DNA of 64,000 nt, from the NCBI GenBank assembly GCA_965263035.1, contig OZ253580.1, positions 3,328,001 to 3,392,000 on the forward strand, given 5' to 3'. Position 1 is the stretch's first letter, and every line of letters starts with the position of its first letter. A program made the position numbers and the translations under genes. The notes beneath the pieces were generated by a model. The model saw only the letters and a list, made by a program, of their open reading frames with translations, made no database searches and had not been told where the DNA came from. Positions 16,343 through 28,613 of the stretch are shown piece by piece. This DNA is from Acidobacteriota bacterium. GTDB lineage: Bacteria > Acidobacteriota > UBA6911 > RPQK01 > JAJDTT01.

Positions 16343-16419
<77 letters not shown>

Positions 16420-22410: not shown

Positions 22411-23583
22411 GTGATCAGGCGCCGGGAATTCCTCAGAAGGACTGCCGCGGCGGGGGTCGTGGCCATGATCGGAAGGGTGACTGCGGGAGCCGCCGGCTCC
22501 GGAAGAGGAGACCGGGGAACCGCTGTCCCCGCCCCCTTTTCCTACGAGATTCCCCACACCCGATCCACGACTCCCATCCAGAGGGCCAGAATCTACCCCA
22601 TGTCCAGTCCCTTCACCCGGACCGACACCCGAACCGGCCTGACCCGAAACGGCCACGTCTACGCGGCCGGCAGCGGCTACCTCTGGGCGTCCCGGGATCG
22701 GGGCAGGACCTGGACCATGCGGAAGCTCCCGGTGGGAACCGGCGGCGGATTCGGAATCCTGAACGACGACGTCTTCATCCTGATCCATGACGCGCCGGAT
22801 CATTCGGTGACCTACGTTCAGCGCTCCACGGACTACGGTGAAACCTGGAGCGAGCCCTTTCCTCTGGACGTGAGCCCCTACACCTTCAGCGGCTCCGGTT
22901 GGAGCGACGTCTACCAGCACCCGGACGGTACCGCCATGATCACCGTGACGCTCCGCTCCCGGGACGGGGTCGACGAATGGGACAATCCTCAGGTTCGCGG
23001 TTTCCACGACCACATCTTTCGCTCCCGGGACGGGGGCCGGAACTGGGGAGACCGGACCCTGATTCTGCCCTATTCGGCCGAGACCACCCTGATGGCGGTG
23101 AAGGACTCGAACCGGATGTTGGCCTATATCCGAGCCCAGAGACCCATGCTGAAGGAGGATCCGGCCGACTTCCGGGAGCGGACCGGGGCCACCCCCACCG
23201 AGGAGTGGGTTCTCAAGAACGGGGTCATCGCCGAGTCCGTCGACGGCGGCCGGAACTGGGTGAACCCCAGGTTGTTCGACCTTCGGGGCAGCGTCCCGGG
23301 CGAGTTCGTCCAGGTTCCCGACGGAAGGGTCGCCGCCATCTGGTTGCAGCGCTACCCCTACGAGCTGGCCGAGATCCGGGCCCGCATCAGCTCCGACGGA
23401 GGACGGTCCTGGGGCCCGACGACTTACTCGCTCATGCACGGGCACGGCTACCCGGACAGCGTGGTCTATCCCGACGGATCCATCGTGACCGTCTGCGAAA
23501 ACACGGACTTGAACCACCGGGGCCGGGTGCTGGGAAGCCGAACCATGGCGGCGCTCCACTGGCGGCTCCCGGACCAGGAATAG
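22411..23583 (+). CDS. Tat-exported BNR/Asp-box (sialidase-like) protein
   Basis: RRREFL signal; repeated SxDxGxTW motifs. Confidence 0.8.
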   Translation: MIRRREFLRRTAAAGVVAMIGRVTAGAAGSGRGDRGTAVPAPFSYEIPHTRSTTPIQRARIYPMSSPFTRTDTRTGLTRNGHVYAAGSGYLWASRDRGRTWTMRKLPVGTGGGFGILNDDVFILIHDAPDHSVTYVQRSTDYGETWSEPFPLDVSPYTFSGSGWSDVYQHPDGTAMITVTLRSRDGVDEWDNPQVRGFHDHIFRSRDGGRNWGDRTLILPYSAETTLMAVKDSNRMLAYIRAQRPMLKEDPADFRERTGATPTEEWVLKNGVIAESVDGGRNWVNPRLFDLRGSVPGEFVQVPDGRVAAIWLQRYPYELAEIRARISSDGGRSWGPTTYSLMHGHGYPDSVVYPDGSIVTVCENTDLNHRGRVLGSRTMAALHWRLPDQE

Positions 23584-23589
23584 CCGCAT

Positions 23590-24392
23590 GGAGGGGCGAC
23601 TTCCAGTCGCCCAACAGGAGCGGCGGCTGTGCGCCAGGCTAACTGGCACAAGATAGGCGGTGAAAGTCCGCTGAAACGAAAGGACTAACCATCCACGTTT
23701 CTCCGCGAGCCGTGCGTGGGCGTCCGTGAGGGCGTCGGCGAAGCGTCGGTAGCGGTGCGTATGGGCAGGCTATTGAGCATCGAAAGCTCCTTGATCGGAA
23801 GTGCCGAGGCTGTAGTCGCGGTCGAAGGCAACACTGGCTGGACCGCCAAGGTGAGGGACGGCCGGGCTCCGCGGTGTCAAAGAACCCATGCACGTACGTA
23901 CATCTGGTGTCGGGACCTGGGAGGGCTTGGTCTCTCCCCGGCGAGAGCCGGGGCCTCGTGGGAAAGGAGAAAGCCGTAACCCATGAGGGGAAAGAGCAAG
24001 CAATCGGATACATCCATAGTAGTGATGAAGCGGGCGAACAAGGAGGGGGAACTCTCTGCGGAGTCGGTGGAGCGAAGGGGTGGAACCAAGGGGAATTCGG
24101 CTCACCAAAGTACGGACCGGACTCAGAGCCGGGCTACCGTGACACAGGCGGGGGTCGGATACGGCGGGCGTCGCGACCTGCCGTCATTACCTGAGGTAGG
24201 AGCCGTGTGCCTTAACGGGCACGCACGGATCTGCGCGGGGGGCGCTGGGCAACCGGTGTCCCTACCGCGACTTCTTGCTGCCGGGAGGGGCGACTTTCTT
24301 GTCGCCCACTGGGAGCGGCGGTTTTCTTGCCGCCGAACGGGAGGGGCGACTTTCTTGTCGCCCATTGGGAACGGCGGTTTTCTTGCCGCCGA
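23590..24392 (+). repeat. Tandem GGAG-type REP array (3 units of paired palindromes); first unit split by the intron
   Basis: GGGAGGGGCGACTTTCTTGTCGCCCA-TGGGAGCGGCGGTTTTCTTGCCGCCGA at 24283-24336 and 24339-24392; split copy at 23590-23628 / 24272-24283. Confidence 0.8.
23629..24271 (+). mobile_element. ORF-less group II intron (643 nt)
   Basis: 5' GTGCG; domain V GAGCCGTGTGCCTTAACGGGCACGCACGGATC (24200-24231, AGC triad); domain VI with bulged A24264; 3' AC; no RT ORF. Confidence 0.9.
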
Positions 24393-24460
24393 TCTCCGGA
24401 GGAACAACACGCCGACCAATTTATGGGCAATTCGAAAACCCACGCTTCAAAGGAGTCAAC

Positions 24461-25690
24461 ATGCACCGGTTTCACGTAATCCACTCCCTATGGGCATTGA
24501 TCCTGGGATTCGGCTGCGGTCCCTCCGGAGGCCCCGATGTCGAGCCGGCCGCTCCCGACCCCTTCACCCCCAACGGCGAAATCCGAATCACCCGGGACCA
24601 CCAGGTCATCGGAACCCTCCCCGCCGAATACATCCCCCTCGACTATCCGAACATGCCCTGGCGGGGTGACCCCGGCATCGGAATGACCCGGGACCGCGTC
24701 ATCTACGTCTCCCTCTATGCCCGGATCTTCCTCTCCCGCGACGGCGGAAAGACCTGGGAGAGCCGTTCCATCGACGTCGAGTCGCTGGATCCGCCCATGC
24801 GGGTCAAAAACTATGACTCCTTCGGCGTGCGCCGGGACGGCACCCTGCTCTGGGCCTACCGCGCCGACGATCCGCCCACCGACTTCCTGCTGCGAAGCAC
24901 CGACGGCGGCGAGTCGTGGCAGCCCTGGAGCCGGTTGGAAAACCTGTCGCCGTTCATCCGGGCGGGGGGGAACCAGAACTGCCTCCTGGAGCTTCGGGAC
25001 GGCACCCTCTTGTGGCCCACCATCATGGCCGCCCAGCATGCCTATGATCACACCGAGGACGCCTCGAAGCCGCCGCCCACCACCTACGTCTTCCGCTCCA
25101 CGGACGGAGGCAAGAGCTGGGAGGAAAAGCACGCCCTGCAGGAATGGGGGACCGAGACCAATCTGTTGGAACTGAACGACGGCCGTCTGCTGGCCGCCAT
25201 CCGTTACCAGCGCGTATTCGAAGCTCCGCCTCCGCAGAACGAACCGCCGGTTCTGATCGAGGAGCACGCCGGGCGGGAGATGCAAAAGAGCATCGTGGGA
25301 AAACGGGTCTTCCTGGCGGACTCGGCGGACGGGGGCCGGAGCTGGCAGAATTTCCGCCCCGTCTGGCGCCAGCCGGACGGACCCATGGATCTGGAGTTCG
25401 GCCAGGCCCACGGCCACATGGTTCAGCTTTCGGACGGCACGGTGGTCCTGGTGGTGGAAGACCGCTACCCCTATCCGGAGGGCGACGTCAGGGCCCGGAT
25501 CAGCCGGGACGGGGGCCAGACCTGGTTGCCCGAGGTCTACCATCTCAGCCCGGGGCACGGCTACGGCGGCAGCGTCGTCCTGGAGGACGACACCATCGTC
25601 ACCGCCTTGGGGAATACGCCGCTGGACGAGAGTGGTCGGCCGCAAGGAGACTACACGGCCCAGATCGTCCGGTGGCGGCTTCCGAAATGA
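24461..25690 (+). CDS. BNR/sialidase-like lipoprotein
   Basis: AAGGAG RBS, lipobox-like GFGC, five SxDGGx(T/S)W repeats. Confidence 0.8.
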   Translation: MHRFHVIHSLWALILGFGCGPSGGPDVEPAAPDPFTPNGEIRITRDHQVIGTLPAEYIPLDYPNMPWRGDPGIGMTRDRVIYVSLYARIFLSRDGGKTWESRSIDVESLDPPMRVKNYDSFGVRRDGTLLWAYRADDPPTDFLLRSTDGGESWQPWSRLENLSPFIRAGGNQNCLLELRDGTLLWPTIMAAQHAYDHTEDASKPPPTTYVFRSTDGGKSWEEKHALQEWGTETNLLELNDGRLLAAIRYQRVFEAPPPQNEPPVLIEEHAGREMQKSIVGKRVFLADSADGGRSWQNFRPVWRQPDGPMDLEFGQAHGHMVQLSDGTVVLVVEDRYPYPEGDVRARISRDGGQTWLPEVYHLSPGHGYGGSVVLEDDTIVTALGNTPLDESGRPQGDYTAQIVRWRLPK

Positions 25691-25724: not shown

Positions 25725-27290
25725 CTATCGGAAGCGAATGGAGTAGAGATCCGCGTCCCTGAGGACGAAGCGAAGGCGAACGGGCTGCCCCGCCAGGGAC
25801 GAGACGTCCACCCCATCCTGCCAGGCGGCGACGCGCTCGATCTCGTCCCCGACGATCTCCAACGAATCCTCCAGCGCATAGCCGGCGATGGGCTCCCCGG
25901 TGGGCGACTGGATTTCCACCCGGATGCTGCCGGCGGCGGAAGTGGAGGTGTTGAGCACCAGTTCCTTCCCCGAGAAAGTGAGCGGACGGGTCACCATTTC
26001 TCCACCGTCATAGGGAGCGTTGACCGACGCGAACCCGTCCACTCTCAAGACGTACCGCCGGATGTGCCAGTGGCGGGTGCCGGTCTCCCGGGTGACGTAC
26101 ATGGAGATCTCCCGCGGGCTGGTGGGCACCACGCCGCGAAGGGCGTAGGTGGTGCGCGTGATCCAGTTCCGCGCTCCCGGTCCGGGACGAATGAAACCCT
26201 CCCGGAAGGTCGTGTCATAGTGGTTGCCGGGTCCACGCGTGGTCATGAGGACCGTCTCCGAGCTGTCCATCCATCTTCCTTCCGGAACCCCGGCTGTCCG
26301 AGCCTCCTCGTCGGTCAGAACCTGGCGGCCCACCATGAGCCGGGCCGGGAAAGCGAGATAGATCTGAGGCGCCCGGTAATAGGGAAGCGTCAGGTTGATG
26401 TAGAGGTGGTTCTCCGGAATGGTCCCGCCGTCCCCGAAGGTCATGGGTTGGAACTCGGACCACTCGAACAGATTGGGGGCCGTGAGCCGCCCGATGGCCC
26501 GCCGGCCCACTGATCGATTCGGGGAGGTGAAGTAGCGTGAGTAGATGACGTACCGCCGCTCGATCTCCGACCAGAAAAAGGAAAAGTCACCGTCCAGAGT
26601 CCCGTACAGGTTGTCCCGGAAAAGCGGCCTGTCTCCGAGTCTCTCCCAGGCCTTCCCATCCTCGGAGACCCAGGGGATGACGTCGGTGGGAGATCCCTGC
26701 CACAATCCTCGTTCGTTCACCGTGAGCTTCCGGGCCAGTTCCTCTTCGGTGGGATTCGCCCGGTACCCCTCGTTCAACTTGAGCGCTATGAGGCGCCGGC
26801 CTGCAGGGACACCAGGCCGGGTGTCGAGATAGACCCTGGCGGCAGGCTCCTCCAGATGATCGTAGAGATACTCGCCGCCGGCCGTTCCCACCAAGTTGTT
26901 CTGCCGGCTCCCGTCGACCTCGATCAGGCCCAGCGCCGGCTTGGTCCAGTGGATCCCGTCCCGGCTCTCGGCATAGCAAAGCTGGTTGGAGCCGTGGTAG
27001 TACATGAGGTACTTGCCCCGGTGCAGGATCACGGTCTGGCCGAATCCGAGTTCGCCTTCCCAGGGCCGGTCGCCCCGGACCACCGTTTCCGCAGGCCTGG
27101 GATGATGGAGCTTGAGGCGAGCGCCCTTCAGGCGATCGATGAGGTGATGATCGACGAACAACTCCAGCCGGTCTCCCATCTCGACCAGGACCGGCCGGTT
27201 CAAAAGGGCCGGAGTTTCGGCGGCGGTTTCCTGGGCCGTGAGGAATACGAATAGGAGCCAGTGCAGGAAGAAAAGTCGGTAACGCAGCAT
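25725..27290 (-). CDS. Secreted glycoside-hydrolase-like beta-propeller protein
   Basis: Signal peptide; LELFVD, YAESRDGIHWTKP, LRVDGFAS...LYSIRF. Confidence 0.7.
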   Translation of the reverse strand: MLRYRLFFLHWLLFVFLTAQETAAETPALLNRPVLVEMGDRLELFVDHHLIDRLKGARLKLHHPRPAETVVRGDRPWEGELGFGQTVILHRGKYLMYYHGSNQLCYAESRDGIHWTKPALGLIEVDGSRQNNLVGTAGGEYLYDHLEEPAARVYLDTRPGVPAGRRLIALKLNEGYRANPTEEELARKLTVNERGLWQGSPTDVIPWVSEDGKAWERLGDRPLFRDNLYGTLDGDFSFFWSEIERRYVIYSRYFTSPNRSVGRRAIGRLTAPNLFEWSEFQPMTFGDGGTIPENHLYINLTLPYYRAPQIYLAFPARLMVGRQVLTDEEARTAGVPEGRWMDSSETVLMTTRGPGNHYDTTFREGFIRPGPGARNWITRTTYALRGVVPTSPREISMYVTRETGTRHWHIRRYVLRVDGFASVNAPYDGGEMVTRPLTFSGKELVLNTSTSAAGSIRVEIQSPTGEPIAGYALEDSLEIVGDEIERVAAWQDGVDVSSLAGQPVRLRFVLRDADLYSIRFR

Positions 27291-27320
27291 TTGGAGTTTC
27301 TCCAGAGGAGGATTCGGCTC

Positions 27321-28613
27321 ATGATACTGGAAGAGGTGAGAGACACAAGACGAAGAATCGACATCGCCCTGTTCCTGGCAGCGGCCGGTTTCCTCTCTTG
27401 CGCGGCGCCGCGGAATGAAAAACCACCTCCTGCGTCCGCTTCCGCCGCCATTCATTTTACCGAGCATCTGATCATGGACGGGTACACCTATCCCTTCGGA
27501 ATCGCCGCCGCGGATCTGGACGGGGACGGCGACCTGGATCTGACCAGCGCCGACGCGCTCCCGCACAACGACCTCTACTGGTTCGAAAACGACGGGACGG
27601 GGGACTTCACCCGCCGTTTCATCCAAAAGGACGACCCCGAGCGTCTCGAGCGGCACGCCGTGGGGGACATCAACGGCGACGGGCATCCGGACGTGGTGAT
27701 CGTGAAGAACCTGCACGGAGACCTGCTCTGGTTCGAAAACAGCGGCAGTCCCCGGGACGGAGAGCTTTGGAAACGGAGAAACATCGCCAAGGGAACGTTG
27801 CCGGGCGCGTACGACGTGGCGCTGGCCGATTTCGACACCGACGGCGATCTGGACGTGGCCGCCTCTTCCTGGTGGTTGGGCTACCAGTTCGCCTGGTTCG
27901 AAAACCCGGGGAACCCCATGGACCCGGCGGTCGAAGCCTGGGATCAGCACCTGATCGAAGGCGATCTTCGGGAGACCACCACCATTCGGGCCGCGGATAT
28001 CGACGCCGACGGCGACTGGGATCTGCTGGCCACCGCCGCTCCCGAGGAGATCGTCCGGATCAACGGTGCGGAAGCCGGCGACGCCGTCGTTATCTGGTAC
28101 GAGAACAGTGGCCTCCCGGCGTCCGGACCCTGGAAGAGACACATGATTGCCGAAGCACCGCGGGCCCTCCACGGACAGCCGGTCGACCTGGATCTGGACG
28201 GCGACCTGGACGTGGTCATGGCCGCTGGCCGGGAGCTCACGCCGGGGCAATCGACCCACTCGGTCCTCTGGTACGAGAACGCCGGCGACCCGGCCGAGGG
28301 TCCGTGGCCGGTCCACGTGATCCGGGAGCCCTACCAGAATGCGTTCGAGGCGGATGCCGCGGATCTGGACGGCGATGGAGACGTGGACGTGGTGGCCACC
28401 GGTTGGGGCCAGCCGGGCCGTGTCGCCTGGTTCGAGAACGGGGGCGACCCCAAGGGCGAATGGACCATGCACGTGTTGAAGGACAATTGGCGGCGGGCCA
28501 ACCAGGTCATCATCGCCGACCTGGACGGAGACGGAGGCCCGGACCTTGCCGCCGTGGCCGAACGGGGCACTCTGGAATTCCGGTGGTGGCGGAACCAGGG
28601 TAGACAGCCATGA
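27321..28613 (+). CDS. FG-GAP/VCBS-repeat lipoprotein
   Basis: GAGGAGG RBS; lipobox LSC; seven DxDGDGDxD repeats with W(F/Y)EN motifs. Confidence 0.85.
   Translation: MILEEVRDTRRRIDIALFLAAAGFLSCAAPRNEKPPPASASAAIHFTEHLIMDGYTYPFGIAAADLDGDGDLDLTSADALPHNDLYWFENDGTGDFTRRFIQKDDPERLERHAVGDINGDGHPDVVIVKNLHGDLLWFENSGSPRDGELWKRRNIAKGTLPGAYDVALADFDTDGDLDVAASSWWLGYQFAWFENPGNPMDPAVEAWDQHLIEGDLRETTTIRAADIDADGDWDLLATAAPEEIVRINGAEAGDAVVIWYENSGLPASGPWKRHMIAEAPRALHGQPVDLDLDGDLDVVMAAGRELTPGQSTHSVLWYENAGDPAEGPWPVHVIREPYQNAFEADAADLDGDGDVDVVATGWGQPGRVAWFENGGDPKGEWTMHVLKDNWRRANQVIIADLDGDGGPDLAAVAERGTLEFRWWRNQGRQP

Follow-up and report, generated by a model that had tools for sequence, protein, structure and literature searches.

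A 64,000-nucleotide stretch of Acidobacteriota DNA (contig OZ253580.1, positions 3,328,001 to 3,392,000; referred to at its full length as the window) contains, at 23629-24271 on the + strand, a 643-nt group II intron that lacks a gene for reverse transcriptase (RT). We consider it likely that this intron is a non-autonomous retroelement with a IIB-like ribozyme, which lost its RT in one deletion and belongs to a lineage of short introns, here called minis, that has persisted and multiplied since. The junctions, alignments and phylogeny described below indicate that there was a single ancestral deletion, whose product has persisted and multiplied in four or more species within one uncultured genus. 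Coordinates are window positions on the + strand unless they carry the label of a genome, the source genome being G000, and the window copy of the intron is referred to as c2.

By its ribozyme landmarks the element is a group II intron of the self-splicing type without its RT gene, as an earlier note on the window sequence had proposed. It begins with GTGCG (23629-23633) and ends with AC (24270-24271), the 3' end reading ...CCGCGAC, also given as ...CCTACCGCGAC. Across 47 copies of the family the 5' terminus is GTGCG or GTGTG in 43, GAGCG in two, and GGGCG in one. The domain I core (23663-23886) matches the Rfam model RF02005 (group-II-D1D4-6) over model positions 1-225 of 225, with 164.5 bits (cut-off 49, E 1.2e-47), and the same model has no match in 14 control genomes (0/14). 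Domains V and VI are matched by RF00029 at 24198-24271, with a score that is weighed further below, and this match stops precisely at 24271, where the 3' splice site is proposed to lie. Domain V (24200-24231) has its AGC triad at 24201-24203, as the note had seen, and contains the compensatory pairs 24206-24225 and 24207-24224. Domain VI (24235-24268) was delimited in an RNAalifold consensus structure of 32 distinct copies with 186 pairs, in which U24263 and A24264 are predicted to form a bulge; A24264, already named in the note as the branch point, lies 8 nt from the 3' end and is the candidate branch nucleotide. Three compensatory pairs (24245-24247 with 24254-24256) are present in the same domain.

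The intron carries three exon-binding sites (EBS) that pair with intron-binding sites (IBS) at exon positions -12 to -8 (EBS2; GCUCC, 23786-23790), -6 to -1 (EBS1; AGUCGC, 23814-23819, placed in a domain I hairpin loop by the Rfam alignment) and +1 (EBS3; A, 23879). In the window copy, 11/11 positions of EBS1 and EBS2 are paired to the 5' exon, with IBS2 (GGAGC, 23617-23621) forming 5/5 pairs, and IBS1 (GCGGCT, 23623-23628) forming 6/6 pairs, one of them G-U. All seven G000 copies (7/7) form 10-12 of the 12 possible EBS-IBS pairs. The 32 distinct copies fall into seven EBS classes, and pairing with their own exons averages 11.4/12 (minimum 10), compared to an average of 9.0/12 with the exons of other EBS classes. 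EBS2 covaries with IBS2 over three EBS2 states and EBS1 with IBS1 over six EBS1 states, and column 23879 is the sole column of the alignment that is complementary to exon base +1 in 32/32 distinct copies, with A-U, G-C and U-A states behind which there are only about two independent changes. Pairing of EBS3 with the first 3'-exon base is a IIB-type feature, and on this pairing the ribozyme is classed as IIB-like.

The exon-binding sites have also changed within the minis themselves. One mini sublineage has switched all three (to CCUAC, to GGGUGC or GGUCGC, and to G) and occupies sites that match them (GUAGG, GCACCC or GCGACC, and C), and minis in the related genome G005 have two more EBS1 variants, each of them in a matching hairpin. 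In the consensus structure, two-sided compensatory changes are seen at 27 of the 186 pairs overall and at 8 when only the minis are considered, among which 99.3% of cells are paired, although these counts are biased towards pairing because the structure was predicted from the same alignment. The RF02005 scores of minis (150-169 bits) and of full-length introns (161-176 bits) overlap. The co-change of EBSs with their targets, together with the compensatory helix changes within the mini clade, points to minis that have stayed functional, and to a mobile lineage of long standing.

No RT gene is present within the 643-nt element, where tblastn with the parent RT matches only its first ~57 and last ~30 codons. 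The remnant of the 5' end of the RT open reading frame (ORF) spans ~57-64 codons (23983-24176, +), has 67-73% identity to residues 1-57 of the parent intron-encoded protein (IEP), and retains an ATG at 23983. The earlier note had described domain IV as a short stub in which the start and the end of the RT ORF are joined; ORF remnants do lie on both sides, but GTGACACAGGCG (24139-24150), which was taken for the ORF start, aligns with codons ~53-57 of the parent's ORF, and the start was thus misplaced by ~155 nt. The deletion junction (24176-24180) was located by aligning three minis with four full-length copies; parent sequence up to ~558 is joined via CCT to parent sequence from ~1815, with the loss of ~1.27 kb, and the junction is identical in the three minis, one each from G000, G005 and G007. 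The remnant was also considered as a real small protein, and this was ruled out as it is frameshifted in three G005 minis; a search for the remnant ATG motif gave no match in 8/20 minis, and other mini sublineages do not conserve the remnant as an ORF.

An RT-encoding parent, for which the note had suggested a search, exists in four congeners (G002, G004, G005 and G007), although not in G000. It is 1917 nt (G002, G005, G007) or 1912 nt (G004) in length, ~1.27 kb longer than the mini, and encodes an RT/maturase of 499-519 aa with matches to TIGR04416 (356.9 bits, cut-off 300) and RVT_1 (121.5 bits). The YADD motif is found in 21/22 IEP copies examined, one further copy without the start motif having been left out, and the frame is open in 9/9 (G002), 3/3 (G004), 9/10 (G007) and 1/1 (G005) uninterrupted full copies. 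The Pfam GIIM domain is not matched in the parent IEP at E <= 0.001, and no further C-terminal domain was reported in the domain search; from that search and from the ORF length, our reading is that this IEP is without an endonuclease (En) domain. In full-length copies of G002 and G007 (L075, L065 and others) the IEP frame continues through domains V and VI to 1916/1917, and the G004 frame ends at 1856, following a difference of 5 nt.

In a maximum-likelihood tree of the ribozyme regions, computed for the 43 copies without interruption and excluding the four interrupted ones, 20 minis and 23 full-length introns lie on opposite sides of a branch supported at 100/100. Identity among minis of different species is 92-95%, compared with 83-88% between minis and full-length ribozymes, even within the same genome. 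This split and the identity of minis between species argue that the mini is an old, separate, non-autonomous lineage; it comprises four sublineages, three of which are present in G000.

The two forms are distributed unevenly among the congeners. G000 has seven minis and one 67-nt fragment, and no full-length copies; G002 has nine intact full-length copies and one that is interrupted by an insertion sequence (IS), and no minis; G004 has three full-length copies and one short fragment; G005 has one full-length copy together with nine intact minis, one IS-interrupted mini, and fragments; and G007 has ten full-length copies and one truncated copy, with three intact minis and one interrupted by a miniature inverted-repeat transposable element (MITE). 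In the draft genome G006 we found no full-length copy, one intact mini and one MITE-interrupted mini, and G001 and G003 have family fragments only. Among 100 relatives sampled, only the genus itself (8/8 genomes) yields long matches, and the other genera have matches of only ~33-121 nt, mostly to the domain V/VI end.

Some of the interrupted copies carry identifiable inserts. Minis in G007 (L059) and G006 (L061) have a MITE-like insert of ~117 nt with ~22-nt terminal inverted repeats at intron positions ~93-210, which breaks mini domain I and lies at an orthologous site in the two species. A G005 mini (L053) has a ~1.96-kb insertion in the domain V loop, and a full-length intron in G002 (L084) has a ~2-kb insertion near position 60; both of these are probably IS elements.

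G000 is a single contig of 6.198 Mb that is 97% complete, and a DNA search of it recovers seven full copies and one 67-nt 5' fragment, which answers the note's suggestion to look for further copies. Copy c2 is 100% identical to a copy at G000:3743283-3743925. Copies c1 and c2 differ at 0/643 positions and c5 and c6 at 0/642, c4 is one base away from one such pair, and the most divergent G000 copy differs from the others at 50-68 positions. The two 100% identical pairs sit at unrelated loci. The orthologue of the window insertion site, between the two BNR genes, is empty in 5/5 congeners examined, with flank identity of 84-92%, and a contig from a related strain in an RNA-library run bridges 23627-24379 with no intron and no extra hairpin units. 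No flanks are shared between the seven G000 minis and 16 minis from G005, G006 and G007. The identical pairs and the empty or unshared sites together argue for several insertions within the G000 lineage. The note had also allowed for a dead, single-copy deletion derivative, which does not fit an element with a domain V match, albeit one below the cut-off, seven copies, and a related RT in congeners.

Two further G000 loci bear on the history of insertion. The 67-nt fragment (L008, G000:4424636-4424702) is a 5' piece of a mini in a target-like site, and since equivalent fragments of positions 1-68 are found in G006 and G007, it is an old truncated insertion. The 3' flank of copy c5 (G000:3066875-3067516) has 66 nt that are 91% like the flank of a full-length intron site in G007 (L068), and this may be the same or a paralogous site held by different intron forms in two species.

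Every G000 copy is inserted at a small hairpin rich in G+C, within the loop or next to it, and apart from a short motif the flanks are otherwise unrelated. The window copy is in the second of six hairpin units that are spaced 28 nt apart. IBS1 is formed by the 5' arm and first loop base of the split hairpin, and the 3' exon (24272-24284), of which T24272 is IBS3, begins with the rest of the loop and the 3' arm (TTCTTGCTGCCG). With a stroke marking the insertion point, the window insertion is GCGGCGGCT/TTCTTGCTGCC, and that of another G000 copy is GGGGCGACT/TTCTTGTCGCCC. Complementarity between the arms at the insertion site is at least 6/8 in 38/47 copies from five genomes, compared with 8/47 in the control. 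Neither a target-site duplication nor terminal inverted repeats are present at the intron. Hairpins acting as terminators were considered and ruled out, as a scan of 23300-24600 gave 0 terminator-like sites and there is no T tail after the hairpin. We found no description of hairpin-loop targeting by group II introns, or of this intron family, in the literature searched, mainly by listings.

The remaining units of the array are unoccupied. The first (23593-23612, +) reads GGGGCGAC TTCCA GTCGCCC, and four further units (24285-24392, +), resembling repetitive extragenic palindromes (REPs), follow the intron as potential targets. Over 23590-24392 the units are G+C-rich and of two alternating types (GGGGCGAC...GTCGCCC and GCGGCGG...CCGCCG). 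In G000 there are 172 unoccupied sites matching GGAG[CG]GGCG[AG]CTT; genome-wide, 787 sites fit the general hairpin pattern and 172-197 fit the intron target. The units in the window and in G000 at large are probably a family of repeats akin to REPs or bacterial interspersed mosaic elements (BIMEs). A match to Y1_Tnp, resembling REP-associated tyrosine transposases (RAYTs), is located at G000:2482924-2483100, ~120 nt from intron copy c3. An IS110-family transposase gene (DEDD_Tnp_IS110 and Transposase_20) is beside copy c4 (L004:2360-3307, +, corresponding to G000:6115745-6116692), and an IS110-family ORF of like size is beside copy c3 (G000:2483928-2484875). With a RAYT-like match near one copy and IS110 genes beside two, the REP-like hairpins seem to be landing pads that attract several kinds of mobile element.

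From these features we infer splicing, dependence on an IEP acting in trans, a priming route and, for G000, a source of the helper; the note had suggested that the intron may be spliced from a polycistronic mRNA. By an ORF heuristic filtered on third-position G+C content (GC3), 6/7 G000 copies are 12 to ~1130 nt downstream of a co-oriented ORF, and the window copy is 45 nt past a stop codon, which makes it likely that intron RNA arises by read-through of transcription that starts at the co-oriented gene upstream. The RNA would then fold and, with a maturase supplied in trans, be spliced such as to re-form the host hairpin, and the resulting lariat ribonucleoprotein would reverse-splice into a further REP-like hairpin, at its loop (GGAGSGGCGRCT/T...), recognising its target by 5 + 6 + 1 base pairs (EBS2/EBS1/EBS3). 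Copying into cDNA would be primed by nascent DNA at a replication fork, as is expected if the IEP is without an endonuclease domain; such priming is known for other En-less introns, and is proposed here by analogy.

In addition to the bias in the pair counts, several observations weigh against a functional and recently mobile intron. The RF00029 score for the domain V/VI region of c2 is 36.9 bits (E 1.9e-5 in a 951-nt search), under the Rfam gathering cut-off of 40, although the RT-encoding relatives score similarly, at 37.5-41 bits, which suggests that low scores are typical of the family rather than due to decay. The domain V helix has G-A as its third pair, a feature shared with the RT-encoding relatives. 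Gene conversion is an alternative cause of identical copies. With the origin placed near 2.87 Mb, as GC skew and dnaA indicate, all seven G000 copies are in leading-strand orientation, but so are 120 of the 172 targets that are empty (70%; P ~0.08), and we therefore dropped the strand bias as independent support for fork-primed retrohoming. RNA from four runs was available as assembled contigs, in which the depth over the intron is greater than over its flanks, but this depth sums over all copies and also includes other organisms, both of which confound the comparison. The exact ligated-exon junction is in no contig of the four runs. A 23601-24272 joint in one of them was considered as a splice product and rejected, as it corresponds to a generic unoccupied hairpin elsewhere in the genome. 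Finally, G000 has no cognate RT, the best tblastn matches to the parental IEP being only 33-36% identical, and tblastn finds no relic of the parental ORF there beyond the stubs carried by the minis. Likewise, the full-length form has no DNA match in G000.

The tblastn search with the parental IEP does identify six RT loci in G000 at 33-36% identity, besides the ORF stubs of the minis. These belong to two further group II intron families of G000 that fit other Rfam models. One, with four to five copies, matches RF02003 (RF02003-type loci at L016, L017, L018, L020 and L023), and the other, with two copies, matches RF02001/RF01998 (loci at L024 and L025). The genome has open RT/maturase frames of both kinds, three of one family (438-471 aa) and two of another (515 aa). 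L016 (G000:2513011-2513270) matches RF02003 with 83.8 bits and has no RT or GIIM match nearby, and may be another ORF-less or truncated copy.

A cognate IEP-encoding intron within the same genome is found in G005 and G007, and not in G000, and there are several ways in which the G000 minis could have been mobilised. Our best guess is that a cognate full-length copy supplied the helper and has disappeared very recently, or else persists in polymorphic or extrachromosomal form among the population, outside the consensus assembly; we rank this first, ahead of minis that are stranded fossils, and place a resident IEP of another class third. As stranded fossils, the minis would have been mobile only while a cognate full-length intron was present, and with the helper gone the seven copies, whether or not they still self-splice, would now be immobile and bound to decay. 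This is possible, but we consider it less likely than not. The lack of a cognate RT or ORF relic in a single-contig, 97% complete genome is as it predicts; G001 and G003, with family fragments only, indicate that loss does occur; and minis disrupted by MITE or IS insertions exist in other genomes. On the other hand, two 100% identical pairs at unrelated loci and lineage-specific sites require that any loss of the helper was very recent, and the covariance scores of G000 minis are not lower than those of the G005 and G007 minis that live beside a helper.

A recently lost, polymorphic or extrachromosomal cognate helper also seems to us to account better for the G000 insertions than does mobility without any cognate enzyme. 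We think it improbable that the G000 minis are spliced and retrohomed by an RT/maturase of another class (33-36% identical) or by a horizontally visiting helper, and equally doubtful, more specifically, that a resident RT/maturase of a D1D4-4- or D1D4-3-type family splices and mobilises them. The three and two open resident frames and the recent mobility of minis in a genome without a cognate RT would be explained by such a helper, and some TeI4 IEPs of Thermosynechococcus elongatus have relaxed specificity (PMC2882425). However, the resident IEPs are distant from the parental IEP at the identities given above, their ribozymes fit other Rfam models, and the known cases of relaxed specificity stay within one closely related intron family (PMC2882425). 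If it were true, minis would parasitise a whole community of intron RTs and be able to outlive their parent across speciation. Lastly, it is highly implausible that the copies are retained because they benefit the host, for instance by acting in processing or insulation between genes. The ribozyme structure is conserved and 6/7 copies lie downstream of co-oriented ORFs, but the species do not have conserved insertion sites in common, both copy number and location vary as in a parasite, and the position is accounted for by the distribution of target hairpins.

The closest comparison is with the ORF-less TeI3 introns of T. elongatus, for which TeI4 IEPs provide mobility (Mohr, Ghanem and Lambowitz 2010, PMC2882425). 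There too, one ancestral domain IV deletion with shared break-points gave a small form that proliferated, and families with different EBSs each match their own sites, with mostly intergenic insertion (PMC2882425). T. elongatus has six potentially active IEPs in the same account (PMC2882425), whereas G000 is without a related one. The family described here differs further in belonging to another phylum, the Acidobacteriota, in having an IEP that appears to be without an En domain, in targeting the loops of REP-like hairpins, and in a mini lineage that spans at least four species. For the present family, mobilisation in trans is proposed from sequence features. Because TeI3 and TeI4 of Thermosynechococcus had already set the principle, the general picture is unchanged.

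C.te.I1 of Clostridium tetani occurs once, within a gene, and is self-splicing. A review describes it as the one bacterial ORF-less intron in a genome without an IEP-related gene (Zimmerly and Semper 2015, PMC4424553). Like the minis of G000, it lacks an ORF and has no cognate IEP in its genome, but G000 has seven intergenic copies with signs of recent mobility, as well as unrelated IEPs. Class C (IIC) introns such as B.h.I1 insert after terminator hairpins, and have an En-less IEP, a short IBS1 and no EBS2. An IEP that is read as En-less and the use of DNA hairpins to mark intergenic, harmless targets are common to both. The present intron differs in inserting inside the loop, with no T tail after the hairpin, in having a 6-nt EBS1, a 5-nt EBS2 and an EBS3, and in matching Rfam D1D4-6; membership of class C was ruled out on the loop insertion, the full EBS1 and EBS2, and the missing T tail. 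There is also a likeness to MITEs, which are internally deleted, multicopy, dependent on an enzyme encoded elsewhere, and can outlive or outnumber their autonomous parent, but the minis are RNA-mediated and ribozyme-based, and are without terminal inverted repeats or target-site duplication.

In the review, bacterial group II introns that lack an ORF are rare and do not last long, and a closely related IEP nearly always accompanies them within their genome (PMC4424553). The minis depart from this picture in that one deletion derivative forms its own clade in at least four species, all three exon-binding sites were retargeted after ORF loss, and insertions in G000 are very recent with no cognate RT in the assembly. 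They offer a natural system for the specificity between maturase/RT and intron, for the persistence of bacterial non-autonomous retroelements, and for REP-like hairpins as safe landing pads. The 643-nt ribozyme and its cognate 519-aa, apparently En-less IEP are also a convenient candidate for structural or targetron-type work.

The window intron lies, as the note had stated, between two genes of the same strand that code for BNR-repeat proteins. The upstream gene (22411-23583, +; 390 aa) matches Pfam BNR_2 (42 bits) and BNR (33.5 bits), and it is the stop codon of this gene that precedes the intron by 45 nt. The downstream gene (24461-25690, +; 409 aa) matches BNR_2 (55 bits), and AAGGAG is positioned 6 nt ahead of its ATG. 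Further along, a 915-aa ORF on the - strand (25725-28472) has no Pfam match at E <= 0.001, and a tRNA gene is located at 16346-16419 (-), with an Rfam tRNA score of 66.3 bits.

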